Both the position numbers and the translations under genes were made by a program. From Thermofilaceae archaeon (lineage in GTDB: Archaea; Thermoproteota; Thermoprotei; Thermofilales; Thermofilaceae): a stretch of 64,000 nt of DNA. Position 1 is the first letter of the stretch. Each line of letters opens with the position of its first letter. Below the pieces are notes generated by a model that saw only the letters and a list, made by a program, of their open reading frames with translations, did not search any database and was not told the origin of the DNA. Where the stretch lies: positions 12,079 through 76,078 of the forward strand of contig JAWCCZ010000006.1 of the NCBI GenBank assembly GCA_038861545.1, in the 5' to 3' direction. Shown one piece after another: positions 6,158 through 61,644 of this stretch.

Positions 6158-6829
6158 ATGGAGCCTTTGTTCTTCATCTTAGGTATAATACCAGATCTGA
6201 TTAGGGGCTTATGGATTACTCTTCAGATTAGCCTGATTTCTTTTGCTTTAGGAATCATGCTTGCAATCGTCCTAGCTCCTGTGAGGGTTTTCGCACCTGA
6301 GCCAGCTCCTTTAATCATAAGAGGGTATGTTGAAGCTTTCAGGGGGACACCTCTGCTTGTGCAGCTATTGCTTATATATTTCGGTCTTCCATCTCTAGGA
6401 ATCAAGCTCGACGCTTACGCTGCATGTGTGCTAGCTTTGGGTTTAAACAGCGCCGCCTATCAAGCGGAAATTTTCAGGGGTGCAATGAAAAGCATTCCGG
6501 AAACACAGTTCCTTGCGGCTGAATCGCTCGGCTTTAGTGAAGGTCAGACTTATAGATATGTTGTGCTTCCACAGGCGCTCAGGGTAGCGACTCCAGCGCT
6601 TGTAAACGAGCTAGTAACATTGGTCAAAGAGAGTTCTTTAGCATCTGTCATAGGTGTGGTGGAGCTCACGAGAAGGGGGGAGTATCTAGTCGCTTATACA
6701 TTTAGAGCCCTAGAGGTTTACATGGCGGTCGCGCTAGTATACCTAGTTGTTTGCGCACTTGCATCACAGGCAGTTAAACAGCTTGAATCAAAGTTTAGGA
6801 TACCGGGTTACGAGAAGGTGGTAGCATGA
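6158..6829 (+). CDS. Polar amino-acid ABC transporter permease
   Basis: FRGTPLLVQL, AAYQAEIFRG, LVKESSL. Confidence 0.95.
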   Translation: MEPLFFILGIIPDLIRGLWITLQISLISFALGIMLAIVLAPVRVFAPEPAPLIIRGYVEAFRGTPLLVQLLLIYFGLPSLGIKLDAYAACVLALGLNSAAYQAEIFRGAMKSIPETQFLAAESLGFSEGQTYRYVVLPQALRVATPALVNELVTLVKESSLASVIGVVELTRRGEYLVAYTFRALEVYMAVALVYLVVCALASQAVKQLESKFRIPGYEKVVA

Positions 6830-7581
6830 ATGACTTTCTACTGAAAGTTGAGGAGCTTAGAGCCGGCTACGATGGCCTTGAGGTGCTGAAAGGCGTCAAT
6901 CTCAATTTAAGTAGAAGTGAGAAAGTGGTGGTAATGGGACCTAGCGGCTCCGGGAAAAGTACTCTATTAAAGTGCATAGTAAGACTGGTTGAACCTTGGG
7001 GTGGCAGGATCTTCCTTGATGGAGACGAAGTGACCTGCAAGCAGGTCGACCTGAGAAGGATTAGGGCTAAAACCGGTTTCGTTTTTCAGCAATATAACCT
7101 GTTCCCACATATGACCGTATTGAAGAACTTAACTTTACCCTTAGAAATCGTAAAGAAAATGTCGAGGTCGGAAGCCGAGAGTAAAGCGATGTATATGCTG
7201 AAAGCTTTCGGGCTTGAAGAGTTTGCTGATAAATACCCGCTTCAACTGAGCGGTGGTCAGCAACAAAGAGTTGCAATTGCTAGGGCGCTGGTGATGGAGC
7301 CAGTTCTTCTCTTGCTCGATGAACCGACTTCAGCTTTAGATCCAGAGCTCAGACAGGAAGTTTTGGATACTCTATTAGAAGTGGCGAGGCAAGGGAGGTC
7401 CATGCTTATAGTGACTCACGAGCTGGATTTTGCCGAAGCGGCTGCTGATAGGTTAATTTTAATGGATAACGGGTTAGTAGTGGAAGAGGGTGATCCGTGG
7501 GAGCTGCTTCATACACCTAGAAGCGATAGAGCCCGTAGATTCTTAGTTAAGATCGCTAAGAGCGCTCAATCAGCTGCTTAA
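6826..7581 (+). CDS. Polar amino-acid ABC transporter ATP-binding protein
   Basis: GPSGSGKST, LSGGQQQR, LLDEPTSALDPE; ATGA overlap with the permease. Confidence 0.95.
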   Translation: MNDFLLKVEELRAGYDGLEVLKGVNLNLSRSEKVVVMGPSGSGKSTLLKCIVRLVEPWGGRIFLDGDEVTCKQVDLRRIRAKTGFVFQQYNLFPHMTVLKNLTLPLEIVKKMSRSEAESKAMYMLKAFGLEEFADKYPLQLSGGQQQRVAIARALVMEPVLLLLDEPTSALDPELRQEVLDTLLEVARQGRSMLIVTHELDFAEAAADRLILMDNGLVVEEGDPWELLHTPRSDRARRFLVKIAKSAQSAA

Positions 7582-14035: not shown

Positions 14036-15130
14036 TTAAACTTTTTCTAAACTTTTGCTAGCTTTGCGAGCAGCCTTGTAGACGGCTAGTATATTTTCCA
14101 GAGGCGTGCCAGGTTGAATGTCATGAGTAGGGGAAAGGACGAAGCCTGTGGGTCCGAGCAGATTAAGCCTCTCCAACACGAGTTTCTCTATTTCGTTAGA
14201 GTTACTGAATAGAAGAGTTGTCTGGACGCTCATCGTCCCATGCAATGTTAGCAAATCGCCATATGTTTTCTTCAGCTTGTAAGGGTCCATACATTCTGGC
14301 TGTACGGGATCCAGAATATCAACATGAATTTCGATTAGGTCTGGGATTATTGGTTCAATCCATCCATCGCTATGGAACATAAAGTATGCTCCGCGCTTGT
14401 GGCAAAGATCGACTAGCTCGACGTATTTCGGTTTCAAGAATAGTCTCCACTTTTCAGGCGATATCATCATGCCTTTTTGCATGCCTACATCGTCTCCATC
14501 GTAGATCACGTCTACGCCGGCGTCGCACAACACTTTAGCCTCTACCATTCTGATTCTGTGAAGATGGTTTAGTATTTTTTCGAAGGTTACGGGATCCCTG
14601 TACATCATCTTCATTGCCTCGTTGAAGCCGGTAAGTTGCCAGGCATTTTCCCATAAATGTTCAACCCCCGCTACGAGGCAGTAGTCTGCATGAAGTTTTC
14701 TAGCACGCGAAGCTACCTCGAACGTTGCTTCTTCATCGACGTATGGCCAGTTATACTCCTCTACTGAGATGTGTTGGAGCGGATGCCTAAGGTAAGTGTA
14801 TGTATAAGTATGATCCGGAGCCCAGATGGTTTCCACTCCCCAAATGTTGGCCCGAAGCTCGTACTCTCCTATACGGCCGAGGGCATATGTGGGCCCGTAT
14901 ACCCACTCGCTAGCCAGCTTTACATACTTGGGTGGAGCGAGACCACCAGCCAATATTGGTCCAGTACTTCGGAAATCTATGTCTAAAGCTCTTAATAATT
15001 GCTCGTAGTCTTTAACTTGTAAAGCTTCCATTAATGAGTTAAGCGGCTCTGGTCTACACTTGAAGTTTAATGGTACCCGGTCAAGCTGCTCATGCTCAAA
15101 ACATCTTATACATCTTTCCCTCGAGTTCAC
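14036..15130 (-). CDS. Uroporphyrinogen decarboxylase (URO-D/MtaA-CmuA) superfamily protein
   Basis: NSRER...DRVP start, GDDVG.Q, MISP, FHSDG, PVQPECMD, SPTHDIQ. Start moved to GTG 15130, which removes the overlap with thg1. Confidence 0.88.
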   Translation of the reverse strand: MNSRERCIRCFEHEQLDRVPLNFKCRPEPLNSLMEALQVKDYEQLLRALDIDFRSTGPILAGGLAPPKYVKLASEWVYGPTYALGRIGEYELRANIWGVETIWAPDHTYTYTYLRHPLQHISVEEYNWPYVDEEATFEVASRARKLHADYCLVAGVEHLWENAWQLTGFNEAMKMMYRDPVTFEKILNHLHRIRMVEAKVLCDAGVDVIYDGDDVGMQKGMMISPEKWRLFLKPKYVELVDLCHKRGAYFMFHSDGWIEPIIPDLIEIHVDILDPVQPECMDPYKLKKTYGDLLTLHGTMSVQTTLLFSNSNEIEKLVLERLNLLGPTGFVLSPTHDIQPGTPLENILAVYKAARKASKSLEKV

Positions 15131-15182
15131 GGTCGTTCCACGGGCGCCCGGATCTAAGCTTTGCGCGTGTTCTAGTGTAAGC

Positions 15183-15896
15183 TCACTTATAGAGCTCCGG
15201 TGCCCTGTAAGCTTCAATAGCTTCAAGGAGAACCCAGGGCCCATCGTTCCAGTCGAGTGATCTAATGCCTCTTTTAGCTACCCAGTAAAGGCTTGTACCA
15301 CCCCACTCCCAAAGCGGGTGGTCAATAACCCGCACTCCATTCTCCTCGAGTAGCCTGACCTGCTGGCGAAGGTTTGTATTCTCCCTAGGTTTAACGTTAA
15401 GTAGTTTTAACGAACGCCCAACAAAGTTGTTGAAAGCGATTCGAGCCCGATACAATATGTATCGCTTGGCATCATCGATATCTATCAAGGGTACTACCCT
15501 AGCGTCGAAAAATAGGCGTCTTCCAATAACTTCGGAAGCGTTAACGGAAAGGATGGATGCTGAAATGCTCACGACTTTTTGCACCCGACCAGCGTAGGGT
15601 AGCGAGGGGCCTAAGAACAGGATGTTAACTTCATCGCTAACGGTGTACGCACAGCTAGCGGAAAGCCTATTGACAACTTGAGAGGTCCCGGCTATAAGGG
15701 CTTCATGAACTCTTCTATCTCTCGGTTCCTGAAACCCTGACAACACTTTGCTAAACCCGACACCATCTAAACGGATAGCGAATGGCAGCCTAAGTCTGGC
15801 ATCTAACTTCTGTTCACGTTCCCTGTAGTCACCCTCTAACTCATTTACCTGTAGCTGCAGAAGTTGTTCTAAAGCTTCTTCCAATTGGAATGCCAT
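15183..15896 (-). CDS. thg1: tRNA(His) guanylyltransferase Thg1-like protein (3'-5' polymerase family)
   Basis: IRLDGVGFS, YTVSDEVNI, GRVQK, FDARV. Confidence 0.9.
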   Translation of the reverse strand: MAFQLEEALEQLLQLQVNELEGDYREREQKLDARLRLPFAIRLDGVGFSKVLSGFQEPRDRRVHEALIAGTSQVVNRLSASCAYTVSDEVNILFLGPSLPYAGRVQKVVSISASILSVNASEVIGRRLFFDARVVPLIDIDDAKRYILYRARIAFNNFVGRSLKLLNVKPRENTNLRQQVRLLEENGVRVIDHPLWEWGGTSLYWVAKRGIRSLDWNDGPWVLLEAIEAYRAPELYK

Positions 15897-21277: not shown

Positions 21278-22768
21278 TTAACCCTCTTTTGCTTTACCTT
21301 TTTTTCTAAGTATTAAAATCGCCCCAGCCACTATCACTACGGCAGCCACTGCTATAGCTATCTGAGTAAAGGAAATTCCGCCTCCAGTTCCCGGTACCGT
21401 TATCTCGACTTGCGGTTTAAGACCAGCTGTTTCTAATGGTGGGATTACTGCGCCGGTGAACCAAAGCCCTTGATATTCTGGGTACCTGGGCCAGGAATTC
21501 ACCTGTATAAGTAGTTCTTTATCACTTCTTAACTTATGTATTCCAGGTAATGTGAAGAGGTATGGAGCATCTGCTCTAACCTTTACTGTCATTGTATCAT
21601 CAATTAAAACCGTAGCATCCTCTTTTGAGTAAAAGTATACTTCTAAACTTGCATTTGAAGGAAACTGTACAAGGATATCCTCGTTTGGTTTCAGTGTATA
21701 GAACATTGTTGATCGCGGGTAACCGCAGTACCAGCCTCCACCCATTCCTGCATTCTCAATCTCTATGCTTCCGTTATGCATAAACCAGATTGAAACTGGC
21801 TTTTCGCTGACTAATGCTATAGCGTAGGCGTTTGGTCTAAGCATTATGCCTGAGCCGCCAGGAATGTTAAAGTCGTCAATCTTAGTACCGGTTTCTAGAT
21901 CATAAAGCGTTACCTTTGTATTCTCTATAGACAGAACCTTAAACCCGTAATCTCTGACTTTATCCCATCCCCACTCTATTGCTTTGAAAGCCCTAGTAAG
22001 GTAGAATTTCCCTTGGAAGCCACCTTCAACTGAGGGGATCACGAAGCTTGTCGTCTCATAGGTTCCTATTCCAGGTATAGCCCCGGACATGACCATTATA
22101 TTCCCAGTAGACTTGATTCTATAAGCTCTGAAAGGAGCAAGTGTAGTATATTTATATTCGTTAGCTTTAAGTTTTAAAGATGTTGTTTGTCCATCATCTC
22201 TTTCAATAGTTACCTCTGCAGGCTCGACGGCCAGTATTGTGTAGTCGGTGGCCGTCAGAGACCCCTGTAGAGCCACAAATACGAATTCCTTGCCCACATA
22301 TATCCCCTCAACGCTGTAGTAAAAACTATGAACCGTTGGCGGTAAAATTGGAAGCGGGAACTTAGGGGTCTGGTTGTAGTTCACCAGCTGAACCGTAACA
22401 GGCTTACTTGCTACGACTTTGAAGATAGTGTTGTTTTTAAGCAGCAAATACAATGGTTCTAAGCTTTTCAACGTAGCTTTTGCGATTAATTGGTTATACG
22501 TTAGATTATAGACCTCAACTTGTACTCCATCTTCTCCGGATACAATCGTTAAAAGCGATAAAGTGACTGGGCTGTTATATACAACCCAATCGTAAGGGGT
22601 CTGGCATGCAGGTTGTGACTGCCAATCCGCTGGCCTGTATTGCCATATTTTAGCCGGCACTTTACCGTAATAGGTATATACCGGCTGTCCATGGGAAATA
22701 TAAGCGTATACGAAGAATATAGTTAAAAAAACCAAATAATAAGATGCAAAGTATCTTCTTTTTATCAT
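21278..22768 (-). CDS. Secreted, C-terminally membrane-anchored beta-rich surface protein, IgGFc-binding-like repeats
   Basis: Signal peptide; four repeats ending KVVASKPVTV / RIKSTGNIMV / ALVSEKPVSI / KLRSDKELLI; TM plus RKKGK tail. Confidence 0.65.
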   Translation of the reverse strand: MIKRRYFASYYLVFLTIFFVYAYISHGQPVYTYYGKVPAKIWQYRPADWQSQPACQTPYDWVVYNSPVTLSLLTIVSGEDGVQVEVYNLTYNQLIAKATLKSLEPLYLLLKNNTIFKVVASKPVTVQLVNYNQTPKFPLPILPPTVHSFYYSVEGIYVGKEFVFVALQGSLTATDYTILAVEPAEVTIERDDGQTTSLKLKANEYKYTTLAPFRAYRIKSTGNIMVMSGAIPGIGTYETTSFVIPSVEGGFQGKFYLTRAFKAIEWGWDKVRDYGFKVLSIENTKVTLYDLETGTKIDDFNIPGGSGIMLRPNAYAIALVSEKPVSIWFMHNGSIEIENAGMGGGWYCGYPRSTMFYTLKPNEDILVQFPSNASLEVYFYSKEDATVLIDDTMTVKVRADAPYLFTLPGIHKLRSDKELLIQVNSWPRYPEYQGLWFTGAVIPPLETAGLKPQVEITVPGTGGGISFTQIAIAVAAVVIVAGAILILRKKGKAKEG

Positions 22769-22853
22769 GGGAATTTTTACCCTAAGAGTTCTTTTTAAAG
22801 GTTATGGTTTTATTACAACAAATCTTAAATACTTCGCTTTTTAATGAACCCTT

Positions 22854-24863
22854 ATGGGCACAGAAACGAAAAGTGAAGTAAAAACTGCATTAAAACCGTC
22901 TCTCTGGGCCGGTTTAGCAGTCTTTTCCCTGGTAATGAGCCTTATTGGAGTGCTTACTGCCCCCTTCGGTCCTAGCTGGATGTTCTCGATGGTTATCGGT
23001 ACATTTACTGCACCTATCGTCGTTCTCTTCATATTCCTTTTGCTTTCAAGAGTTACCGGTATTTCAGCATCGCCGCAGACTTTAGCATTACTTTATGCCG
23101 CGGCTTCTATGTCCATAGCCTTCTGCTACAGTATGATACCGTACGGTATAATACACAATGCGGCCGCCCTCCGGATGAACCAGTATAATTGGCATCCGAC
23201 GAATTGGGCTGTTCCAAATTACTGGGTTTTCGGTCCAATAGTTTCTGATCCAGCGGAAATGACTCCAATTACTACGGGAGGCCCAGTCCCATTGGATAAA
23301 TGGACACCATTCCTAACATGGTGGATCACATACACAATACTATGGCTACTATTCTTCACAGGCTGGATAGGGCTACTATATGATAGGTGGATAGAGGTAG
23401 AGAGGCTGCCTTACCCTGCCTCATTAACTGGTACTATGCAGATCGAGCTAATATCCAGTAAAGGTAAAGACCCAAGAATCAAGTACTTTATGCTTGGTGT
23501 TTTACTCGGAGCGATAACAATAATTCCAATCATAGCTACTTATCTAAACCCTGCGATCCCCGATATTTACGGCTGGACTAGAGAACCATTCTTACCATGG
23601 TTCTTAGGTACAATGGACTTCTCCAGATCACCGCTTGGTGCCGCTATACCTGTGATAGCATTCTTACCTGTTAACCCAATGATCTATTCGCTATTCTACC
23701 TAATGCCGACGAAAACCCTGTTTACGATCTGGGCATTCTCATTATTCGGCATAATGATACCGAGCCAAATTGCGTTTTACATGGGATACTACAGCGACTT
23801 ACCAACAATGGCGAACAGATTCCACGCATTCATGAACGGAGCACCATTCCGATGGAACGGATGGTGGATAGGCGTCTACTTCGGCTTATTCCTGATATGG
23901 TTTGCGCTGAACATCAGGTACATGAGAGATATCTTTATGAGAGATGCTCCGGAGCGAGCGCTCCCCGGCAAGCTCGGTACTGTAATGATTATAGGTTCAA
24001 CAGCAGCGCTTATCGCAATGCTTATCGTAGCCGGAGCCAACCCAATAGGGGCTCCCTTGATAGTTTTGACAATGTGGTTGCTGTTTATGTCCTCTGCAAG
24101 AGTTCTAGGTAATGCTAGCCTAGTTGGAACAGCTTGGGGCTTCCCGATAGATTGGACTCACCTTCCTAGCTTAGTTAAGTACCTTTACATACCGGATCCC
24201 GGCTACATTACAGCACCAGATGGATCACAAGTTAGACCACCAGAAATGGTAGCAACTCTATGGCTAGCAAACAGATGGACCGGCGAACTAATGGCCGAGA
24301 ATAATACTAACTTCGGTATGGCTTTTGCTATCCCGCTATGCTATAAGGTTGGCTTTGACACCAAAACTCACCCAAGAGATATTACGAAGGTAATTCTAAC
24401 TTCAGGTATAATTTCGGCCGTGGTCGGTTACACGGTTGGTCTATGGTTCAGCTATGCCGCAGGTACAAATAACACTAGGATGGGGATGTTCGACGCTTGG
24501 TGGCACTGGGTATTTGGAGCTCCGTGGAGCAAAGTTGAAGAACAGTTTATAGCTGAGCCGTTATTACCTTACATAGCTGCTGGCTTCATACTGATACTTT
24601 TAATCAGCTTCCTCAACTTCCGCTTCGTCTGGTGGCCACTAGACCCCGTCGGCGTAGCGATGGCTTTCGGTGCTTCTGGAACTGGTTGGATAATACCGGC
24701 TTTCGTAGCATGGATAGTGAAAAGGCTCATATACCGTATTGGCGGTGCAAAGCTTGATGAGAGTACAGTTACGCCGATAGTGGTAGGATTCCTTGTCGGC
24801 TACTGGGTAATGGTTTTCATCGGCGGAATAGGTTCAATGATACAGTTCTTCTTACCGAAGTAA
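22854..24863 (+). CDS. DUF6785/DUF6784 OPT-like polytopic transporter
   Basis: Many TM segments; WIEVERLPYP; C-terminal RFVWWPLDPVG and AWIVKRLIYRIGG. Confidence 0.75.
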   Translation: MGTETKSEVKTALKPSLWAGLAVFSLVMSLIGVLTAPFGPSWMFSMVIGTFTAPIVVLFIFLLLSRVTGISASPQTLALLYAAASMSIAFCYSMIPYGIIHNAAALRMNQYNWHPTNWAVPNYWVFGPIVSDPAEMTPITTGGPVPLDKWTPFLTWWITYTILWLLFFTGWIGLLYDRWIEVERLPYPASLTGTMQIELISSKGKDPRIKYFMLGVLLGAITIIPIIATYLNPAIPDIYGWTREPFLPWFLGTMDFSRSPLGAAIPVIAFLPVNPMIYSLFYLMPTKTLFTIWAFSLFGIMIPSQIAFYMGYYSDLPTMANRFHAFMNGAPFRWNGWWIGVYFGLFLIWFALNIRYMRDIFMRDAPERALPGKLGTVMIIGSTAALIAMLIVAGANPIGAPLIVLTMWLLFMSSARVLGNASLVGTAWGFPIDWTHLPSLVKYLYIPDPGYITAPDGSQVRPPEMVATLWLANRWTGELMAENNTNFGMAFAIPLCYKVGFDTKTHPRDITKVILTSGIISAVVGYTVGLWFSYAAGTNNTRMGMFDAWWHWVFGAPWSKVEEQFIAEPLLPYIAAGFILILLISFLNFRFVWWPLDPVGVAMAFGASGTGWIIPAFVAWIVKRLIYRIGGAKLDESTVTPIVVGFLVGYWVMVFIGGIGSMIQFFLPK

Positions 24864-25088
24864 ACTAAAGTAAACTATCTATTTTTTATAAAGTTTCTAG
24901 TTCAGAAATAATTAAATTCTAACAATTTTAGTTTTTCTAAGACAAAGTGAAGAAAAATAATAATAATTTATATTATTGCTGAATTTTATTAACTTTTGAT
25001 AGTCTATGATGAAAAGAAGTTTCTCTTCTTTTAAACATTTTATGAAGCAAGCTATATAAGGAGGTAACCTACACCAAACCGATTAGAA

Positions 25089-28000
25089 ATGTCAATTCGA
25101 AAAGCTCCGAGTTTGCTGCTTATTTTCCTGCTAGTAGTGTCTACGCTAACGTTGCCGGCTTATCTAGTAGGTGCTCAACCAAGTAGTATTCCAATTTCCG
25201 AACTCGTCGGGCTGGTTAAACTCGATGAAATACTTCAACATACTAAGTATTTTTCTAATTTAGATTCGAGAGTCACAGGCTACGATGGTTTTTATCAAGC
25301 GGCTGAATATATCAAGGAATATTGGAGTGGTCTTGGGTTTACTGTCAGAGAAGAGCCTTTTGATGTTGCTATTCCTATAGTGAAGGATGCCAGTATATCC
25401 GTTGACGTACCTGGAGCGGGTTTGGTAAAATACTCTGCCTACCCTTTATGGCCAAATCACGTTAACCCTTGTCCATACGTTAGTCCGGTTTCGGGAGATA
25501 AACTGGTTTACGCTGGTAAAGGGGGGTTAGAAGACTTTGACGGAGTAGACGTAGAGGGGGCATTTGTTTTGGTCGAATTCAATAACAGATGGTACTGGAA
25601 GTACGCCGCTATGTTTAAGGCTAAAGGAGTAATTTTCATCGAGCCGGACGATACAAGCGTTACTGAAGCTCTGCAGAAGGTTCTTAGTGTACCTGTAAAC
25701 TTCCCCAGACTTTTTGTAAGTAAAAATGTAGGCGCCGAGCTTAAAGAACTTTTAAAAAAGCATAGCGAGCTCAAAGTATGGGTCAACTCAGAGGTAGAAT
25801 GGGAGAGAAGGAGAGTAGCCAATATTATAGCTACTATTGAAGGTACTAACCCCGATTTAAAGGACGAAGTGGCTGTCGTAGGAGCTTACTACGATTCCTG
25901 GTCTATAACACCTCAACTCTCCCCTGGAGCTACAGATGCAATCGGAATAAGCTTCCTTCTCGAGCTATCCCGCCTCCTGAAAGAACGCCCTGCGCGAAGG
26001 ACTGTTTGGTTAGTGGCATTTGCTGGCCACTACCAAGCGCTAGCTGGGGCTAGAGAGTTCGTTGATAGTCATTTTGGCGAATTAGGGAGTAAAGTAAAAA
26101 TGATGATAACGTTAGATCTTGCTAGTGATAGCGACGTTGTTGCAGCTTACGCTGCTGGAGCAATGTATGGCTATAACCGGCCTAGAGACATCCTGCCACA
26201 ATACGATAGCTGGATGAACAGCATCGTAAGCTTGGCTAGAAATATCGAAAATATAACTGGGGAGCCGGCACGCCTTATAGATGGTGTCCGCTGGACCTGG
26301 CCTCCATGGGCTGTCAGCTCGCCGCCTTTCGAGCCTTTTCTAAGGTACTTTGAAGCTGAGGTATTCACTAAAGCCTGCTATGGAGGTGGGCTTGCTTTCG
26401 TAACTACCAACGCGCTCCGGAAATACCAGTGGACATTCATGGATACCTTCGAGAAGTTACGCTTGGAAAATCTGCGTAGACAATTAATTGTTTTAGCTCC
26501 AGTGATTTATCATTCACTGGACATGGAAAGAATACCTTATTCGCTTTACCCAAGGAGAATAGGAGCCGTTGATCATGGACTGGTGTCGGTCACGCTGCAG
26601 CTCGGTAAGTATAATAAAACTACTAACATGTTTGACGACTATGCTCACAAGGATGCTTTAATCTTTGTTTCAGTTAGCCCGATAATGAGTGGAGCAGCTG
26701 GAATTTTAGCAGTTGGTTTTCAGCCTGCCGCCGCCGTAGGTTCATCTCAGAGTATCACTGTCCAAGGTGCAACCGTAGGTTTATTTGCAGCTTCATCCCC
26801 CGTTAGTGGAACTACAGTCACAGCCGCATCAATAAATACACCGGTAGGGTTCACGTTAATCCTCAAACCGGATGAAACTGGCAGGGTTGAGCTGAAAAGT
26901 ATAATGCCTTTAACCGCCGTTGATGCTCAAGCCTACGTAGTTGACTCAAGGACAGGCGAGGTGCTGAGCGCGACCGACACGGGTCCTTTCGGCACCGGTG
27001 TGTTTAGGCTTGGCGGGCTCTTCGGTGCAGCTGGCGCAATCGCGGCACCGTTGCTTTCACCGATGATGGGCGGACTCGGCTACTTAGCGGAAGCAGGCGC
27101 CTATGCGAGAGCTTTCACAGTACAGGTGCCCCGCGGCCACAGGTATATTCCACTGTTTAATTGCTCTTCAATCGTCTTCATAGGCTTTTATGATCCGCTT
27201 TTGTTGTACGGTCCCCAAGGTTTATCTTTTGAGCCACTCAGCTTTATCTCACACAGCTATCTTGTTTGGAGAGATGTTTTAACAACCTGGCCCGAGGCTA
27301 TGGCTTTTGTAGAACCAGAAGTACCTGTTGAAGTATTGATTAGAAGTCAAGGAAGAGTTATAGCAGTTCTCAATAATGCTAGCGAAGCGAATCCGAATGG
27401 CCAGGGATATACTCTGCCTTGGGGTAAGACACTGGTGCTCACAGCGGTTGATGCTGTATTGAACACGTACCGGTTAGCTGAATACAGAGGGGGTTTCCTA
27501 GAGAGTAGGATGACAAGCAGTCCAAGGATGCTTCTTTACTTGGATACTATGAGAAAATACTTAGTTGCAGCTAAAAGTGCTCTAGATAAAGGCAGTAAAA
27601 GTATTTTTGTGAAATATGTTTTAGCGGCTTGGCAATTTGTTATCGGGTCCTACGATTCCACGATTTCCCTGCTTTTTGATGTTTCTCAAACTGCGGTCTT
27701 TTTCTTCTTCCTCTCGATAGCCTTCGCGCTTTTAGCCAGCAGGTTCATGGGTAGAATGGTTTCCGGAAAGAAGCAGACCCTTTATACTTTAGTTGTGTTG
27801 ATAACCGCTAACGCGGCAGTAGCTTTTGTACACCCCGGTTACACGATTTCAAATAATGTTTGGATGCTTGTAAGCGGTGTCTCTGTCATCCTCTTCTTGG
27901 CACTCGTCCTATACACGGTTAGCGACGAGTTCAACACAGCTATATCCGAACTGAGTACGTCCATACTTGGATTCCATAGAGCTGATGTGAGAAGGGGATC

Positions 28001-29711
28001 TATACTTCCCTCGGCAATCTCCATGGGTATAGAGAATCTTAAGAAACGTCCACTGAGAACCGCATTAACGCTAACCACAATAACAATCACGGTTATGGCC
28101 CTCGTGCTCTTTACCACAGTTAACGTGTCACTTTTCTTCTATAATAGGAATCTCGGCCCAGCTCCCTACACAGGAGTTTTGGTAAGGCGTCCATTCCAGC
28201 AGCTCTACATGCCTATGCATGAAATATATCTGAAAATATTACCAGGCATGCTAAGTAACAGTAACGCGTTATTTGAGGCACATCCTAGGGCATGGCTATA
28301 CCCTGCTGGGCAGAGTTTATTCCTAACTTGGGGGCCCAACGGGTCGGGTATAAGGTGTATGTTGGCGTTAACGCCGGAAGAATCCAAGTCTCTTGAACGC
28401 GCTCTAGATGGTTATTACTTTACTCCTGCTTCTACTTACTCGGTTATTATGACAAAATCGCTGGCCGAGAGGCTCAGCGCAATACTCGGCTATCCAGTCG
28501 GTCTAGGAAGTGAAATAAACATTTACGGTATCAACATGACTGTAGTAGGGCTACTTGATAAACAGATAGCGTCTGCGGTTCTCGCCAGGGATTTAGATGG
28601 ATCACCTATAACGCCGCCTGATCCGATAGCCACTGGTTTAGCTGCTACTTACTCACCCTTGGATTTAGATACAGTGATTATTATCCCATATAGCTTCGCA
28701 CTTCAGTACCTAAACGCTCAACCGAACGTTATGAGAGTAAGTACAGAATCCCGAATCGACAAAGAATATATGCTGGCTAAAGCATACGAAATAGCCACGT
28801 TCCTACCCTTTGATATCTCGTACGGCGTTAAGGATGATACAGCGCAACTTATAGCTAAAAGAGATATCTATGCTATGGGCGGCTTTGAGAACGTCGCAGT
28901 TCCCCTAGTTCTTTCGGCGTTAACGATGCTTATAACGATGCTGGGCGCGGTATACGAAAGACGTAGGGAAATACACACACTTGCAACCGTTGGCGCAGCA
29001 CCTGGGCACATAGATATCATATTTGTTATGGAGGGAGCCACGCTAGCGTTCTTAGGTGCCTACCTCGGCTACATAGTGGGCGCTAGCGCATTATTCGCTG
29101 TGTGGAACCTGCGCGCTTTCCCACCGGGCTTAGTGCCCAATGTCTCATCTGGAGTGGTAATTGTAGTTATAGGGGTTATAATGATTACCGTGATTCTCTC
29201 GACTCTCTATCCAGCATCTAGAGCTTCGAGGTTAGCTACTCCATCATTGTTAAGGTCTTGGGCTATTGAGACTAAGCCTAGAGCTGGTAGCTGGCAGGTG
29301 AGGATGCCGTTTATGGCTACACGTGACGAAGCTATAGGGTTGCTCGTGTTTATCAGTGAGTACCTCGAAGCTTACAGCTCTGAACGGGAAAGGTCCAGGG
29401 TTTTCATGCTTTTATCTCCACCTCAGCTAGGGAAAGATGATAAAGGTTACACGTTGAGTGCAAGGCTTCACATGGCGCCTTTCGACGCAGGAATAATACA
29501 GGATATGAATATATTCGCTAGAATCACCCAAGCGGATAGGTACCTGTTTGATGTCGTGCTAAGGAGGCAGCAGGGTCCTGAATCCTTATGGGTAACTACA
29601 AGTAGAGCTCTCATAGGCGAGCTTCGTAAGCAGTTCCTTGCTTGGAGGGCGTTGCCTCCAGCCGAAAAGGAAAAGTATGTCAAGAAGGGAGCGACCGCGG
29701 GACTGAGGTGA
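25089..29711 (+). CDS. Fusion of a PA/M28 peptidase-like ectodomain to a MacB/FtsX-type ABC permease (1540 aa)
   Basis: Signal peptide; SRVTGYDG, PA insert, GAYYDS, PGATD, AGHYQ, TLDL; extra TM helices; NLKKRPLRTALTL (MacB TM1); AVYERRREIHTLATVG and LYPASRAS (FtsX domain). Confidence 0.85.
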   Translation: MSIRKAPSLLLIFLLVVSTLTLPAYLVGAQPSSIPISELVGLVKLDEILQHTKYFSNLDSRVTGYDGFYQAAEYIKEYWSGLGFTVREEPFDVAIPIVKDASISVDVPGAGLVKYSAYPLWPNHVNPCPYVSPVSGDKLVYAGKGGLEDFDGVDVEGAFVLVEFNNRWYWKYAAMFKAKGVIFIEPDDTSVTEALQKVLSVPVNFPRLFVSKNVGAELKELLKKHSELKVWVNSEVEWERRRVANIIATIEGTNPDLKDEVAVVGAYYDSWSITPQLSPGATDAIGISFLLELSRLLKERPARRTVWLVAFAGHYQALAGAREFVDSHFGELGSKVKMMITLDLASDSDVVAAYAAGAMYGYNRPRDILPQYDSWMNSIVSLARNIENITGEPARLIDGVRWTWPPWAVSSPPFEPFLRYFEAEVFTKACYGGGLAFVTTNALRKYQWTFMDTFEKLRLENLRRQLIVLAPVIYHSLDMERIPYSLYPRRIGAVDHGLVSVTLQLGKYNKTTNMFDDYAHKDALIFVSVSPIMSGAAGILAVGFQPAAAVGSSQSITVQGATVGLFAASSPVSGTTVTAASINTPVGFTLILKPDETGRVELKSIMPLTAVDAQAYVVDSRTGEVLSATDTGPFGTGVFRLGGLFGAAGAIAAPLLSPMMGGLGYLAEAGAYARAFTVQVPRGHRYIPLFNCSSIVFIGFYDPLLLYGPQGLSFEPLSFISHSYLVWRDVLTTWPEAMAFVEPEVPVEVLIRSQGRVIAVLNNASEANPNGQGYTLPWGKTLVLTAVDAVLNTYRLAEYRGGFLESRMTSSPRMLLYLDTMRKYLVAAKSALDKGSKSIFVKYVLAAWQFVIGSYDSTISLLFDVSQTAVFFFFLSIAFALLASRFMGRMVSGKKQTLYTLVVLITANAAVAFVHPGYTISNNVWMLVSGVSVILFLALVLYTVSDEFNTAISELSTSILGFHRADVRRGSILPSAISMGIENLKKRPLRTALTLTTITITVMALVLFTTVNVSLFFYNRNLGPAPYTGVLVRRPFQQLYMPMHEIYLKILPGMLSNSNALFEAHPRAWLYPAGQSLFLTWGPNGSGIRCMLALTPEESKSLERALDGYYFTPASTYSVIMTKSLAERLSAILGYPVGLGSEINIYGINMTVVGLLDKQIASAVLARDLDGSPITPPDPIATGLAATYSPLDLDTVIIIPYSFALQYLNAQPNVMRVSTESRIDKEYMLAKAYEIATFLPFDISYGVKDDTAQLIAKRDIYAMGGFENVAVPLVLSALTMLITMLGAVYERRREIHTLATVGAAPGHIDIIFVMEGATLAFLGAYLGYIVGASALFAVWNLRAFPPGLVPNVSSGVVIVVIGVIMITVILSTLYPASRASRLATPSLLRSWAIETKPRAGSWQVRMPFMATRDEAIGLLVFISEYLEAYSSERERSRVFMLLSPPQLGKDDKGYTLSARLHMAPFDAGIIQDMNIFARITQADRYLFDVVLRRQQGPESLWVTTSRALIGELRKQFLAWRALPPAEKEKYVKKGATAGLR

Positions 29712-29717
29712 AATGGA

Positions 29718-31607
29718 ATGTCTTTAAGTATTAAGGAAGGCGGAAAGATGCTCTCCTGGCGTGTTATCCTAATATACTTGTTTATAGTAGTTGTTTTACA
29801 CCCCGTTTTGATTTACAATTGGCTTACAAGCGGTCTCTGGGGCGTAGCAGGATTAAACGCTTGGGCAATTATACTGATCTTAGTCTGGTTAACAGCGAGA
29901 ACTGGTTCGCCGTTAACGAAGGGCGAGATCTTTGCATTAAGGATGATAGACTCAGCAGGCTTGATGTACACTGGCTACTATTTCGCTTACATGCTTCGAA
30001 ACATGTACTTCGCTAACTCCGAGATAGCTAAATTGTTTGGCCTCCAAGAGGAGGTTCCACCGTTCTTCGCACCTATCAAAGAGGACTTCATTCGAGTATC
30101 TATATTTAGAACGTTTTTCGATAAAGCATGGCTTCAGCCGATATTCTCTACCATCATAATACCTTTTGCTCTAGTCGTAACTGCGAACTACATACTCGGG
30201 CTAATATCCTATAGCATCTACGTCAGGGAGGAGCGGCTAGCGTTTCCATGGGCATCGTGGGACGCTAGAATGATGATCGCGTTCGGAGAGCGAGAGCCGA
30301 CTAGGATTCGAACAATCTCCTTGGCAATAATCGTCGGCGCGCTGTACGGTTTCATGACCAGCGGTTTATCGACTATCTTCAGATATCCGCTCGTCCCCCG
30401 TATGATGGTTGACTTCACGAGCTTGGTGGAAAATGTGATGCCTGGAGCAGCTTTCGCTTTCACAACGGACTTCATGAGCTACGTAGTCGGTTTTATTCTT
30501 CCGGTCAGGTATACTGTTCTTCAACTCGCTGCCTCCGCAGCAATATCGGTGCTCGGTAACTACTATGTAACAATTAACGATTTATGGCCAGCTGAGGCTA
30601 AATGGCAACCGGGTAGAGGTATACTCTGGAACTTTAACATGTCAACCGTTTACTTCTGGAACAGCTTTACGCTGGGCTGGGGTCTCGCAGCAGCTCTGCT
30701 CCCATTAATAATCAGATATAAAGTAGTAGCCCGTGCATTCTCTGGTATCACTAAAGGACTTTCGGGTAGTACCGGTATCAAGTGGCTGGACTCTAAGTAC
30801 CTTCTAGCCTCTTACTTGCTGATAACATTGCTGTCAATAGCATTTGTGGAGTCGCTGGCACCAGGTTTTCCAATACATATACTCCTCCTATTCACTGTGG
30901 GAATTTCGCTACTTATCACTCTGCTACAGACACATGCAGCCGGTATTCTAACGACAGTGAATATTCCCTATCTTCGTGAAGCTTTAATATACTTCAGCGG
31001 TTATAGGGCATTAAGTATCTGGTTTGTCTCCTCCGATGCAATGCTATTCACAGGAGGCTCGGGAGTTGCGCAGCAACTATTACAAGCTACAATGGTTGGA
31101 GTAGATGTAAGAGAGTACACTAAGGCTTACTTCATGCTGTCGCTCTTGGGGCTGGTAGGTAGCTTCGCCTTCGTCTCGCTTTTCTGGTATCTCTTCCCCA
31201 TACCCGGACATGCTTATCCGTATACTCTATCAGGATGGCCAGTTGAATCGATGAACTTCTGGCGCTGGCAGTCCTGGCTTTGGACAGGTTACCTTTTCCG
31301 GAGAAACTGGATGATAATGGGCTTCGGGCTCTCAACGGCAATGTACTTTATCTCTGACTTCCTATTGCATGATTTCTCTCTGCCTGTAGCGTTCATGAGC
31401 GGCATGCTGCTACCAATACATACGGCTTTAGCATACTTTGCTGGTTCACTAATCTCGAATTTCATAGCAAAGTATGCAGGGGAGCAATGGTGGAATGAGA
31501 ATAGAGGGTACATAGCTATGGGTTTATGGCTCGGTGATAGTATAGTCTCGGCTTTCCTAATGTTAATGCAGCTGCTCAGTAGGTCCATCTGGTTACTGCC
31601 GTATTAA
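29718..31607 (+). CDS. OPT-like polytopic peptide/small-molecule transporter
   Basis: Many TM segments; YVREERLAFP motif paralleling ERLPYP in 22854..24863; 6 nt downstream of the fusion gene. Confidence 0.7.
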   Translation: MSLSIKEGGKMLSWRVILIYLFIVVVLHPVLIYNWLTSGLWGVAGLNAWAIILILVWLTARTGSPLTKGEIFALRMIDSAGLMYTGYYFAYMLRNMYFANSEIAKLFGLQEEVPPFFAPIKEDFIRVSIFRTFFDKAWLQPIFSTIIIPFALVVTANYILGLISYSIYVREERLAFPWASWDARMMIAFGEREPTRIRTISLAIIVGALYGFMTSGLSTIFRYPLVPRMMVDFTSLVENVMPGAAFAFTTDFMSYVVGFILPVRYTVLQLAASAAISVLGNYYVTINDLWPAEAKWQPGRGILWNFNMSTVYFWNSFTLGWGLAAALLPLIIRYKVVARAFSGITKGLSGSTGIKWLDSKYLLASYLLITLLSIAFVESLAPGFPIHILLLFTVGISLLITLLQTHAAGILTTVNIPYLREALIYFSGYRALSIWFVSSDAMLFTGGSGVAQQLLQATMVGVDVREYTKAYFMLSLLGLVGSFAFVSLFWYLFPIPGHAYPYTLSGWPVESMNFWRWQSWLWTGYLFRRNWMIMGFGLSTAMYFISDFLLHDFSLPVAFMSGMLLPIHTALAYFAGSLISNFIAKYAGEQWWNENRGYIAMGLWLGDSIVSAFLMLMQLLSRSIWLLPY

Positions 31608-37589: not shown

Positions 37590-38627
37590 TTACGACTGGT
37601 ATTCCTCCAGAGAAAGATCGACTGTAGCTTCAAGTATATCCATTGAATAGTCGCAAACTCTTCTTAAGCTGTCCGCAATAAGCCTTATAATCATGTGCCG
37701 CCTAGCATCGCAAGGTTCTTCAAGTATCTTGCTTATGAATCTTCGTTCGGTTTCAATTAGCTTTGGCGGGTACTCGTCCAGCAGAGATAAAGCCCTAGCG
37801 CGGTCTCTAGTTGTGAAGCAACGTATTGAGTTAGTAAAAACTTCTTTAGCTAGCTTTGTCATTAGGTCTAGCTCGTTTTCAAGACCTTTAATTGACACAT
37901 GAGCTTCGATTAAAGACTCGGTATTAGCTGCTATCTTCTGGGCATGATCAGCGGCTCTTTCAATGCTCTTTCCAGTGATCGCGTACTCTATCGCCTCTTC
38001 AAGGCTTCTTAACCCAATCTCCTTTATGCTGACAAACCCTCTAACGCTAGCGTTAAGTTGTCTAAGCAAGTATAAGTGTAGTTTATCCACAAAGTCATCC
38101 CGCTCAACCACGTCCTTTAACAACTTAGTATCACTTGAGAACAAACCCTCCATTGAGTCGCTAATCATACCACCTGCTATTTGCCCCATTCTTTGGATTA
38201 CCACGTTAACTGGAAGTTCTTCCACGTTAACTAGTACCTGGAGAACTATCGTTTGCTCATTTTCTTCGAGGAGTTCAACTCCAATCATTTTATTGGCTAC
38301 AACTTTCCTTACAATGTCTCGGTACTCGATAGCATCGTCGGGGAAAAATATTTCTACAATCTTGTAGCCAGCTAGGTAGCGAGCCATAAGCTCCCTTATG
38401 AATGAATCTTTGCTTGTATCTCTCTCCACGCTCAACTTTATCACAGGCTTTTTCATCCTTTGAAAAGTGGGTGGGAGGATTCGTAGTGACCCGTCCGGCT
38501 CGAATGAGATGGAGACTGGTATACCCTGCTGAAGGCCAACCCGTTTGGCCCAGCCCTTAGGGAGCGACACAACGTACGTGGATTTACCAATCACTTGTAT
38601 CCTGCGTACTACTTCTCTAGTCTCCAC
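37590..38627 (-). CDS. phoU: Phosphate uptake regulator (AbrB + 2x PhoU)
   Basis: RRIQVIGKSTYVVSLPKGW, YLAGY, RDDFVDKL, IERAADHA. Confidence 0.92.
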   Translation of the reverse strand: METREVVRRIQVIGKSTYVVSLPKGWAKRVGLQQGIPVSISFEPDGSLRILPPTFQRMKKPVIKLSVERDTSKDSFIRELMARYLAGYKIVEIFFPDDAIEYRDIVRKVVANKMIGVELLEENEQTIVLQVLVNVEELPVNVVIQRMGQIAGGMISDSMEGLFSSDTKLLKDVVERDDFVDKLHLYLLRQLNASVRGFVSIKEIGLRSLEEAIEYAITGKSIERAADHAQKIAANTESLIEAHVSIKGLENELDLMTKLAKEVFTNSIRCFTTRDRARALSLLDEYPPKLIETERRFISKILEEPCDARRHMIIRLIADSLRRVCDYSMDILEATVDLSLEEYQS

Positions 38628-41288: not shown

Positions 41289-42194
41289 GTGGGCAGGTTC
41301 GAGAACAAAGTAGCTATAGTAACTGGAGGGGCTAGGGGAATTGGAGCAGCGATAGCTTACAGGTTGGGATCCGAGGGTGCGAAGGTGGTTCTCTTCGATT
41401 TAGACGCAGAAGCTGGTACAAAGAGGTTGGAAATGCTCAGGAGTAAAGGGGTTAGAGGAATCTACGTGCAAGGAGATGTAGCTAGGGAATCCGACGTTAG
41501 CCGGTGCGTTAGAACCGCTGTGGAAATTTTCGGGCGAATCGATATTTTAGTGAACAACGCCGGCATAGGCTTCTCGGGAAAGCCTTTATTCCAGCAAACG
41601 TTAGGGGAGTGGGAGAGGATTATTTCAGTTAACTTAACTGGTCCGTACATTTTTTCGAAGTATTCAGCTAAGGTAATGGCAGAGCTCGGGGGTGGGGTAA
41701 TAATCAACATTGCAAGCACCCGGGCGCTGCAATCAGAGCCTAACACTGAACCTTACTCCGCATCAAAAGGTGGTTTAGTAGCTTTAACTCACTCTCTAGC
41801 GGTGAGCTTAACTAAGTACAGGATAAGAGTTGTTGCAATTTCACCCGGGTGGGTTGACACCAGCTACTGGCAAATCCCGCCAAAAGAGCCCTCGCTTACC
41901 GAGCTAGATCACGAACAGCATTTAACCGGTAGAGTGGGTAGACCTGAGGACATAGCCTCGCTCGTAGCTTTTCTGGCTTCAGATGAAGCTAGCTGGATCA
42001 CTGGTGTAAACTTTATCATTGACGGAGGGATGACGGTGAAAATGCTATACTTAGACGATACCGTAATCGCAGACGCTGCTGCCACGCTGACTGGCGATTC
42101 CGATTTCGCCAAGCTCTTAAAACTGCTTCTGTCAGGGGATCCAAATACTCAGGCGAAAGCCAAGGAGGTTATGAAGAGTGTGCTGGAGAGCTAA
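41289..42194 (+). CDS. SDR family oxidoreductase with a C-terminal extension
   Basis: TGGARGIG, NNAG, YSASK, ISPGW, DGG. Confidence 0.93.
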   Translation: MGRFENKVAIVTGGARGIGAAIAYRLGSEGAKVVLFDLDAEAGTKRLEMLRSKGVRGIYVQGDVARESDVSRCVRTAVEIFGRIDILVNNAGIGFSGKPLFQQTLGEWERIISVNLTGPYIFSKYSAKVMAELGGGVIINIASTRALQSEPNTEPYSASKGGLVALTHSLAVSLTKYRIRVVAISPGWVDTSYWQIPPKEPSLTELDHEQHLTGRVGRPEDIASLVAFLASDEASWITGVNFIIDGGMTVKMLYLDDTVIADAAATLTGDSDFAKLLKLLLSGDPNTQAKAKEVMKSVLES

Positions 42195-43248
42195 CGTTAA
42201 TCCTTCGGTACTTATTGGCCGCGTCGTACAGCGCAATTATATTCCCCAGAGGAGTGCTAGGCAATATTGTATGGCTCGGCCTTAAGGTATAGCCCGTAGG
42301 TCCTAGTACATTGAATACGTACTTTACTTCAGCTGTCACCTCGCCAGGCGATTTCCAGGGTAAACTTTGCACGCCAATACCTCCCTCAAAGCTTAACTGA
42401 TCGCCGTAGAGCCTCTTTATGCGCGCTATATCCATTGCTTCAGGCTGTAAGGGTTCCAGGACATCTACTCCAATTTCTACTAAGTCCGGGATTATGGGCT
42501 CGATCCATCCGTCGCTATGAAAATGGAAGAACGCACCATGCTTATGGACCGTTCTTGCTAGTTTCTCGTAGCGCGGCTTTAGAAAGCGCCTCCACAACTC
42601 GGGGGAAATCATCATTGTGGTTTGTGTACCCACGTCATCTCCGCTGTACACCTGGTCTACCCCAGCCTCGGCCAGTAGAGCGGCTTGCCGCTCCGCGATG
42701 CCGAAAAGCCTGTCAAGCACGGACTCGACTTTCCACGGCTCTAGGAGCATCAACCGGAAGATCTTGTTATAGCCGAAAAGAGCACACGCTGTCTCGAAAG
42801 GTTGAAGCACGGCACCGACAACGCAGTAATCCTCAAAGCTTTGCCTAAATTCCTCGACCACCTTTACGTCCTCCTCTTTGAGTTCAGGGTACTCGTACTC
42901 ATAGGTTTCCACAAGCTCTAGTGGATGCTCGGCATGCATGCTAGTTCGGCCGTCACTTGAAAACCTATACACTACGCCGAAAGAATCCCTATACAGACGC
43001 CTACCATTGTTATCCCTAAACCAGCCCTCGTACGAGCTCACCAGCCCTATTCCAAGCCAGCTAATGTTAGGTAGAAACCCTCTGTAGTCAATATTCAATC
43101 TCCTCAGTAGGCGCTCGATATGGTCTACACCCAACGTTGATGAAAGCTCCTCCAAAGGCTCGGGTGATTCAATCCAAATGTTCAATGGAACCATGTCCAA
43201 TTCTTCTCTCCTAACGGCTCTGTAGCAGCGTTCCCTAGGGGTGAGCAT
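42169..43248 (-). CDS. URO-D superfamily protein (second paralog)
   Basis: TPRER...DMVP, GDDVGTQ, MISP, FHSDG, PLQPEAMD, RPSH. Start likely ATG 43248. Confidence 0.88.
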   Translation of the reverse strand: MLTPRERCYRAVRREELDMVPLNIWIESPEPLEELSSTLGVDHIERLLRRLNIDYRGFLPNISWLGIGLVSSYEGWFRDNNGRRLYRDSFGVVYRFSSDGRTSMHAEHPLELVETYEYEYPELKEEDVKVVEEFRQSFEDYCVVGAVLQPFETACALFGYNKIFRLMLLEPWKVESVLDRLFGIAERQAALLAEAGVDQVYSGDDVGTQTTMMISPELWRRFLKPRYEKLARTVHKHGAFFHFHSDGWIEPIIPDLVEIGVDVLEPLQPEAMDIARIKRLYGDQLSFEGGIGVQSLPWKSPGEVTAEVKYVFNVLGPTGYTLRPSHTILPSTPLGNIIALYDAANKYRRINVSSPAHSS

Positions 43249-43391
43249 GGCTATCGATAAGTTCAAGGACTCTCTAGTTAATAGATTTGCCTCCTCTACA
43301 TTTACTATAGATAGCCTGAAACTTTGGATACCAGTTTAGAACCGCAATGCATAAATGGTTCCTTCGTTAACTAAAAACAAGGCGTGGAGAT

Positions 43392-61581: not shown

Positions 61582-61644
61582 GCTTAAACATCGATGGACT
61601 ATAGGTTCATAAACATCTTAAAATCTATTCACTTGGGTAAGTTC

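Follow-up and report, generated by a model that had tools for sequence, protein, structure and literature searches.

Three neighbouring membrane protein genes in a Thermofilaceae archaeon (GCA_038861545.1, contig JAWCCZ010000006.1; genome of 1.63 Mb) belong to a conserved envelope module for which no description was found in the literature searched, where no paper on DUF6785, on orphan FtsX permeases or on a combination of FtsX, OPT and PqqD came up. The genes, designated P0002, P0003 and P0004, lie in a stretch of 64,000 nt (the window) and encode a DUF6785/DUF6784 protein, a giant fusion of an M28-like ectodomain with a MacB/FtsX-type permease, and a polytopic protein of the OPT superfamily, respectively. 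They are read here, tentatively and with a likelihood somewhat short of even, as one of six front ends of an ATP-binding cassette (ABC) machine of type VII, the motor of which is shared and which probably serves the uptake of oligomers. The module thereby points to a type of envelope machine that has yet to be studied and that probably takes up nutrients. Public annotations label such proteins as 'M28 family peptidase', as a subunit of an 'ABC-type antimicrobial peptide transport system permease' or as 'hypothetical'.

The linkage of these genes is observed both within the genome and far outside it. The pair of a P0003-type fusion and P0004 is present in six copies in the Thermofilaceae genome (its own loci), always adjacent (6/6), and a DUF6785 gene accompanies the pair at four of the six. 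The ectodomains of the six paralogs share 28–40 % identity, and the six modules, at ~6.5 kb each, make up ~2.4 % of this small genome. Furthermore, 20 loci were drawn from 20 other genomes of different families, solely on the basis of their best P0004 match. A full-length fusion (1467–1696 aa) lies within ~2.5 kb of P0004 in 18 of the 20, the remaining two, from one genus, carrying an FtsX protein of 1057–1072 aa in its place; a DUF6785 gene is found in 18 of the 20 as well. The triad of fusion, P0004 and DUF6785 genes also occurs in Bathyarchaeia and on other contigs, and the fusion family reaches Baldrarchaeia, Nitrososphaerota and bacteria. At the three bacterial or distant loci, Armatimonadota included, a P0004-family gene directly follows the fusion in every case, with hidden Markov model (HMM) E-values of 1e-79 to 1e-114. 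Such clustering, in six paralogous pairs, 18 of 20 genomes and 3/3 bacterial or distant loci, is far beyond chance. The initial annotation had proposed that the membrane genes form an undescribed unit, and this co-occurrence across archaea and bacteria, together with the count of six paralogous loci, bears it out: the conserved unit is P0002 + P0003 + P0004, with P0004 as the obligate partner of the fusion. Longer proteins joining P0004 to an FtsX protein did not appear in the search made for them, a result that the search tool itself rates as weak.

Both polytopic proteins of the module are OPT-like, as had been suggested from the start. P0002 (22854-24863, plus strand; 669 aa) matches both Pfam models assigned to it, DUF6785 (PF20581) with 33.6 bits (cut-off 25) and DUF6784 (PF20580) with 44.3 bits (cut-off 26.4). 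P0004 (29718-31607, plus strand; 629 aa) has no Pfam match at E ≤ 0.1, OPT included. Its paralog at C1:473728-475716 of the same genome (C1, C3, C4, C5 and C8 denote contigs of this genome) matches OPT (PF03169) with 39.1 bits (cut-off 25.8), and its ortholog P0009 has a precomputed PF03169 match. Because these relatives match PF03169 while P0004 does not, P0004 appears to be a distant branch of the OPT superfamily rather than a clear PF03169 member. Moreover, the profile of the P0004 family (45 sequences) aligns with that of the DUF6785 family over 553 columns (HHalign 99.6 %, E 6.9e-24), the membrane part of the fusion giving 1.5 % as a control. Judged by these profiles, P0002 and P0004 are full-length homologs, two OPT-superfamily paralogs of one module, and an E-[RK]-L-x-[FY]-P motif near residues 170-185 is common to their families. 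A sequence search of the P0004-family profile against solved structures returned nothing meaningful. The family itself is small, with 1,218 clusters (50 % identity) at E ≤ 1e-3 among 1.84 billion representatives.

Two irregular copies of the DUF6785 gene deserve mention beside P0002. At the fifth own locus, the DUF6785 paralog (C1:247503-248795; L048:13456-15564) is divided into open reading frames (ORFs) of 173 and 490 aa by a single in-frame TGA, which may reflect a pseudogene, a sequencing error or read-through. In addition, a fragment at C8:21899-22348 shares 66 % identity with P0002 residues 2-150 and runs off the contig end; it may be what is left of a closely related seventh module lost to an assembly break.

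P0003 (25089-29711, plus strand; 1540 aa) is the M28-fold/MacB-permease fusion named in the initial annotation, since Pfam identifies both its M28 and FtsX parts and the MacB periplasmic core is recovered by fold. Residues 1-494 (25089-26570) comprise a signal peptide and an extracellular PA/M28-fold domain, in which Peptidase_M28 (PF04389) matches residues 245-354 with 51.8 bits and for which the PDB sequence matches are the PA-containing aminopeptidases 2ek8 and 6hc6. The metal site has been rebuilt: Tyr267 stands in place of the first zinc-ligand His, and His314-Tyr315 in place of the catalytic and ligand Glu-Glu pair. The catalytic Glu is a His in 84 of the 93 homologs, bacterial ones included, and the residue at the position of the bridging Asp varies; the canonical M28 residues are kept in only two members of the set, both of them non-fusion M28 peptidases. 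The loss of the Glu-Glu pair across the whole family therefore makes the M28 domain a pseudo-peptidase, as initially annotated, or a re-tooled site, its residues departing from those of an active M28 metallo-aminopeptidase.

What is conserved at the former metal site is a G-H-[YFW]-Q motif (with the His in 84/93 homologs) and Asp269 (93/93). These residues favour an alternative in which P0003 is a regulated surface enzyme, i.e., a re-tooled M28-like hydrolase switched by ATP-driven mechanotransmission, comparable to FtsEX-EnvC/amidases and YbbAP-TesA, with the OPT-like proteins importing its products. A precedent for the pairing of a type VII system with a hydrolase exists (PMC7668044, PMC12646458). 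However, three of the positions that serve metal binding or catalysis in canonical M28 enzymes have been lost or vary, and the conservation could equally mark a binding pocket. The enzymatic alternative is accordingly given only a slim chance.

Between the M28-fold domain and the membrane, residues 495-868 (26571-27692) are predicted by AlphaFold2 (40 sequences; predicted local distance difference test, pLDDT, 81; predicted template modelling score, pTM, 0.81) to form two beta-sandwiches and a three-helix stalk. Structural matches of this region are limited to generic adhesin, pilin and carbohydrate-binding-module-like folds at TM-scores of 0.2-0.26, and its helical matches are non-specific. 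The hydrophobic stretches 524-542 and 638-656 were considered as transmembrane (TM) helices and discarded, as the model places them in a beta-sandwich or in disordered loops.

The domain architecture of the membrane part is that of a type VII permease. Residues 869-1393 (27693-29267) run from three additional TM helices through an elbow helix to a four-TM FtsX domain of the MacB/LolCE type. FtsX (PF02687) matches residues 1273-1382 with 45.2 bits (cut-off 25.5); MacB_PCD reaches 22.3 bits, under its cut-off, and its assignment is confirmed by the fold match. Beyond the Pfam calls, NCBIfam yields only partial LolC/E and FtsX matches for the module proteins. A model of residues 855-1540 (pLDDT 80) contains the three extra helices, the elbow helix, the FtsX bundle, whose TM1 and TM2 flank a periplasmic core domain, and a cytoplasmic domain of 147 aa. 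Its top Foldseek matches are LolE, MacB, Spr0694-0695, YtrEF, YbbAP, HrtB, BceB and FtsX, with E-values down to 5e-10, and LolC beside LolE, YtrF and YbbP are among the closest structural matches. In VIA-align, the model scores Z 16.3 against YtrF and Z 12.3 (root-mean-square deviation 3.5 over 182 residues) against the isolated periplasmic domain of MacB. The coupling helix, ERRREIHTLATVGAAPGHI, corresponds to residues 1290-1308 between TM2 and TM3, and its ERxxEIxxxxxxGxxP motif is kept in at least 80 % of 42 homologs. P0003 thus has the FtsX domain, the periplasmic core and the coupling helix of a type VII permease, and the family-wide conservation of the coupling-helix signature argues that it still talks to an ABC ATPase.

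The fusion ends in a family-specific cytoplasmic alpha/beta domain (residues 1394-1540; 29268-29711), strongly conserved with invariant or near-invariant columns and closing with an LRKQFLxWRxL helix. It has no match in Pfam and no usable match in the Atlas. Borderline structural matches to helix-grip/START/AHSA1 and KA1-like folds (Z 8-9.3, 100-117 residues aligned) offer a lead to its identity in the model, not an assignment.

The ATPase to which the fusion would couple is not encoded beside it: no ABC ATPase adjoins the module at any of the six own loci. Two places in the window with ABC ATPase genes (6826-7581 and ~49.1-50.8 kb) were set aside as candidates, the first being only ~40 % identical to the MacB type and none of them adjacent. 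The bacterial operons are more complete. After the fusion/P0004 pair, they continue with a protein of 311-347 aa, a PqqD-like protein, a small FtsX of 227 aa and an ABC ATPase. Each of these has a counterpart elsewhere in the archaeal genome. A minimal FtsX (C3:19994-20710; 238 aa, four TM helices, no periplasmic domain) stands next to a MacB-type ATPase (C3:20764-21492), a second, orphan copy of which is found at C5:60848-61594; the PqqD-like protein is encoded at C4:224641-225045, and a cytoplasmic protein of 321 aa, a remote homolog of the bacterial 311/347-aa family, at C5:2653-3618. The ATPases of the bacterial operons are 64-71 % identical to the C3 and C5 copies and only 42-44 % identical to the third MacB-type ATPase of the archaeon. 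Identity is 39 % between the bacterial and C3 small FtsX proteins and 31 % between the bacterial and C4 PqqD-like proteins, and the C5 protein aligns with the 311/347-aa family at HHalign 96 % (E 4.5e-9).

Phyletic profiles follow the same pattern. In a 300-genome sample of the phylum, P0004 matches are found in 54 genomes, of which 51 have a strong full-length ortholog of the small FtsX, two more a divergent one beside the module, and 53 a PqqD-like gene. At the family level, small FtsX and PqqD-like genes are both present in all 14 P0004-positive families, compared with four and two, respectively, of the 34 P0004-negative families (Fisher p of 6e-9 for small FtsX and 2e-10 for PqqD-like, values that are generous as the genomes are related). 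Additionally, 4 of the 20 archaeal loci have a motor-type ATPase 2-5 kb away from the module, and the PqqD-like and small FtsX genes adjoin each other in one archaeal family. On the strength of the bacterial operons, their archaeal counterparts and the observed co-variation, the genes in the window are read as a front end, and the missing ATPase is probably encoded in trans as part of a set of small genes common to the modules. This motor had been overlooked in the initial annotation. The list of parts in trans (ATPase, minimal FtsX, PqqD-like and 321-aa proteins) makes the system testable. As a separate observation, the orphan C5 ATPase is followed after 2 nt by a THUMP-domain protein of 179 aa (C5:60848-62135; L055:4849-6133), an odd neighbour for a transporter ATPase.

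The distance between module and motor genes leaves room for a reading in which P0003 is a receptor or scaffold decoupled from ATP that binds or gates two proton-driven OPT-type carriers, the FtsX, ATPase and PqqD-like proteins belonging to a separate system. An adjoining ABC ATPase is lacking at most archaeal loci as well as at the six own loci, the small FtsX is present in 13 genomes without P0004, and five further large FtsX proteins are likewise without a neighbouring ATPase. On the other hand, the motif that contacts the nucleotide-binding domain in the coupling helix is retained, bacterial members share an operon with ATPase and small FtsX, the ATPase orthologs are highly similar across domains, and the phyletic co-variation is near-perfect. 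A decoupled scaffold is therefore considered improbable. The five large FtsX-domain proteins (714-1090 aa) are encoded at C1:255369-257513, C1:389820-393092, C1:412737-415562, C1:134902-138156 and C4:120563-123589. One of them is located 2.8 kb from the second module locus, relatives of 1009-1064 aa directly follow the orthologous module at loci L023 and L025, and the five may be clients of the same motor.

In the favoured reading, the six copies would be interchangeable, substrate-specific front ends on a type VII envelope machine of the MacB/LolCDE class. Each front end would consist of the giant permease, exposing its re-tooled M28/PA domain, two beta-sandwiches and stalk outside the cell, and one or two OPT-fold proteins. 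The shared motor would be made up of the minimal FtsX, the MacB-type ATPase with its orphan copy, the PqqD-like protein and probably the 321-aa cytoplasmic protein. The small FtsX and the FtsX domain of the fusion could form a LolC/LolE-like heterodimer driven by two copies of the ATPase. Movement of the ectodomain at the expense of ATP would then capture or release an extracellular oligomer, and the OPT-fold partners would carry it across the membrane. P0001, the surface protein encoded divergently from P0002, might act as an additional binding protein for one module sub-clade. For the direction of transport, uptake is the best guess that a mixed context allows: all characterised members of the OPT family are importers (PMC3061005, PMC9691689), the paralogs have expanded with diverging ectodomains, and sugar-type genes are found near this copy and beside modules elsewhere.

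Several points weigh against this proposal. Physical assembly, sharing of the motor, transport direction and substrate are what we infer from the domain architecture, homologies, gene linkage and phyletic co-variation observed above; the mutual binding of module and motor proteins, in particular, rests on inference. A complex prediction for P0004 with the membrane domain of the fusion (two chains, periplasmic domain omitted) scored 0.01 against a mark of 0.32, which speaks neither for nor against their contact. The genome-level statistics overstate the association because the genomes that share the features are related, and the 13 genomes with a small FtsX and no P0004 match imply that the motor is not exclusive to the module. 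The characterised type VII ABC systems all work outward or within the envelope, none of them being an importer (PMC12646458, PMC8333309), and the cytoplasmic PqqD/RRE-like protein and the possibly lipid-binding helix-grip-like domain fit an outward machine equally well. Finally, the genes around five of the six own loci point to neither sugars nor peptides in particular, and the pooled tally of neighbours is mixed between sugar and peptide enzymes, including peptidases (M19, M55 and PmbA/TldD) and NamZ.

The foremost rival is accordingly an outward-acting envelope machine that, like LolCDE, YbbAP-TesA, HrtBA and BceAB, extracts or presents a membrane-embedded or cytoplasmic molecule. Its cargo might be a lipid-linked glycan, a lipid, a hydrophobic compound or a peptide, with the OPT-fold proteins as the exit or flipping path and the ectodomain delivering to the surface or S-layer. 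The behaviour of the characterised type VII systems (PMC12646458, PMC8333309, PMC7668044) and the identity of the nearest folds (LolE/LolC, MacB, YtrF, YbbP and HrtB) speak for it. So do the co-varying PqqD/RRE-like core component, a cytoplasmic protein from a fold family known for peptide binding, the conserved cytoplasmic C-terminal domain with its helix-grip/START-like leads (Z 8-9.3) and the heterogeneous gene neighbourhoods. However, the START-like match is borderline, the characterised OPT-family members are all importers (PMC3061005, PMC9691689), and six to eight divergent paralogs per genome, together with TrmB regulators and glycoside hydrolases, point to nutrient specificity over housekeeping biogenesis. 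An outward machine is thus viewed as rather unlikely.

The uptake reading also allows for a bolder proposal, which is doubtful though worth stating: a hybrid class of primary and secondary transporters, in which a shared type VII engine, made up of the minimal FtsX, the ATPase and the PqqD-like protein as an adaptor, powers many interchangeable giant receptor-permeases that each gate or feed their own OPT-fold carrier. If so, it would be the first case of an importer based on a MacB fold and an archaeal and bacterial counterpart to uptake dependent on substrate-binding proteins. The pairing would constitute a new coupling of ATP-driven mechanical work to a secondary-carrier fold; it spans several archaeal classes and bacteria, and in archaea it comes in six or more substrate-specific copies with apparently one shared motor. 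To our knowledge, ABC systems of type VII have been regarded as never importing and as invariably bringing an ATPase of their own, and OPT carriers have been regarded as working solo.

Comparison with known systems places the module between established classes. It has in common with type VII ABC systems (LolCDE-LolA, MacAB-TolC, FtsEX-EnvC, YbbAP-TesA, HrtBA, BceAB and YtrEF) the four-TM FtsX fold, the periplasmic core between TM1 and TM2 and the coupling helix. Like LolC/LolE/LolD, it would assemble a heterodimer of two different FtsX subunits with the product of one ATPase gene, and, as in YbbAP-TesA and FtsEX-EnvC (PMC12646458, PMC7668044), the extracytoplasmic partner has a hydrolase fold. 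It departs from the type VII systems in that its permease has, besides an N-terminal ectodomain of ~840 aa and three additional TM helices, a new kind of cytoplasmic domain at the C-terminus, in that its second FtsX subunit is without a periplasmic domain, and in that the archaeal motor genes are unlinked and apparently common to six or more permeases. Unlike any described type VII system, it has OPT-fold polytopic proteins as obligate partners. These partners resemble OPT/Yellow-Stripe-like carriers (TC 2.A.67, PF03169; HvYS1, PMC9691689; PMC3061005) in being polytopic and ~630-670 aa long. They differ from them in that P0004 itself is without a Pfam OPT match and in that known OPTs are solo proton symporters, whereas those of the module are tied genomically to an ABC-type permease.

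A precedent for the proposed economy of parts is offered by group II energy-coupling factor (ECF) transporters, in which the energising set of ATPases and scaffold is encoded once and several substrate-specific membrane modules are encoded elsewhere. The likeness lies in logic only, with the sharing being presumed in the present case; there is no homology, and fold, topology and coupling mechanism differ.

The substrate may be approached through the surroundings of the module. Of the 15 Gfo/Idh/MocA genes in the genome, four lie within ~24 kb around the P0001-P0004 locus, as do two genes for xylose-isomerase-like TIM barrels; over all modules, 7 of the 15 Gfo/Idh/MocA genes fall within ~12 kb, four of these around this locus. 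In other genomes, TrmB regulators and GH130, GH106, GH10, GH4 and GH42 genes stand beside the modules. At the other five own loci, the adjoining genes are of the URO-D-like, MttB-like, HAD, P-type ATPase, MFS, PhoU and ADK types. At this locus the context suggests a glycoside or a modified sugar, a peptide being equally possible.

The locus had also been likened to an archaeal analogue of a polysaccharide-utilisation locus (PUL). Part of this comparison stands, as the copy in the window does sit in a catabolic island of sugar type. A consistent PUL-like context in the Thermofilaceae genome had to be given up owing to the heterogeneous neighbours at the other five loci, and the analogy is weak. 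As in the PULs of Bacteroidota (SusC/SusD), uptake-type membrane modules occur in multiple copies with variable anchored surface proteins, and genes for glycoside hydrolases and sugar regulators accompany them in some of the genomes. In contrast to PULs, the module lacks a TonB-dependent transporter, SusD and an outer membrane, neither SusC-type transporter nor SusD family being found among the Pfam matches of the window or the neighbour genes, and its linkage to carbohydrate-active enzymes is inconsistent and mostly absent in the Thermofilaceae genome.

Some neighbours recur for other reasons. URO-D-like genes of the methyltransferase type flank the locus twice (window 14036-15244 and 42169-43266) and are also found at the second module locus (L045:6181-7269), and a non-canonical MttB-like gene (L046:5709-7133) flanks the third; a recurrent link to methyl-group metabolism is possible. 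Regulators with AbrB/MazE-type and PhoU domains are near two of the six module loci (window 37590-38627; L048:5236-6201).

The fourth gene of the locus, P0001 (21278-22768, minus strand; 496 aa), encodes a membrane-anchored surface protein that is a clade-specific accessory of one module sub-clade and stands outside the conserved core. The initial annotation had counted it as part of a four-gene machine, a view that its distribution does not support. Homologs of P0001 beside a DUF6785 gene are confined to the second own locus (HHalign 99.7 %, E 4e-25, between the two counterparts) and the orthologous loci L023 and L025, so that a P0001-type protein is present at two of the six own loci, and a third paralog (C1:322036) is isolated from any module. 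Other module loci encode sequence-unrelated proteins with the same architecture of signal and C-terminal anchor; apart from that of the second own locus, these anchored proteins were rejected as remote P0001 homologs (probability ≤ 8 %). P0001 itself has TM segments at 7-25 and 469-487 and a type I architecture, with an N-terminal signal/anchor, an ectodomain of ~440 aa, a C-terminal TM segment and a basic tail. It has no match in Pfam or NCBIfam, and an Atlas look-up returned only unnamed archaeal clusters of ~485-490 aa. Its description as a TM-anchored beta-repeat protein holds for the anchors; no internal repeat was found at the sequence level, where the best local score is 39 against 33.6 ± 3.5 (maximum 40) for shuffles.

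Further anchored surface proteins were noted in the course of these comparisons. The window itself encodes, at 61594-63405, a protein of 603 aa that is anchored at its N-terminus and, through a TM segment, at its C-terminus, similar to P0001 in architecture and unrelated in sequence. The stand-alone P0001 paralog (C1:322036-325596; L050:8037-11597) is ~1.3 kb from an ABC ATPase of 254 aa that is 36-40 % identical to the MacB-type ATPases, and a xylose-isomerase-like TIM-barrel gene is also nearby. Loci L019 (3002-5599, 12270-15396, 17353-19275) and L027 (6793-9886, 11881-13794) hold three to four surface proteins that are unannotated and anchored at the C-terminus; the orthologous modules of these genomes have a tandem pair of surface paralogs with 29 % identity and a TrmB regulator, and one of the anchored proteins has a weak DUF4861 match.

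The layout of the locus agrees in all respects with the initial annotation: the four ORFs, their domain calls and the spacings of 85 and 6 nt were all reproduced. P0001 and P0002 diverge from an intergenic region of 85 nt (22769-22853), in which AT-rich, TATA-like boxes can be read ~25-30 nt 5' of both start codons, namely TTTAAAAAG on the minus strand, 24-32 nt 5' of the P0001 ATG, and CTTAAATAC, 21-30 nt 5' of the P0002 ATG. This region is a putative divergent promoter. P0002 is followed by an AT-rich spacer of 225 nt (24864-25088) with an oligo-T run after the stop codon and a further box, TATATAAGG, 27-37 nt 5' of the P0003 ATG, and the P0003 stop is separated from the P0004 start by 6 nt. 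P0003 and P0004 probably form a transcription unit apart from P0002, with transcript boundaries predicted from these signals.

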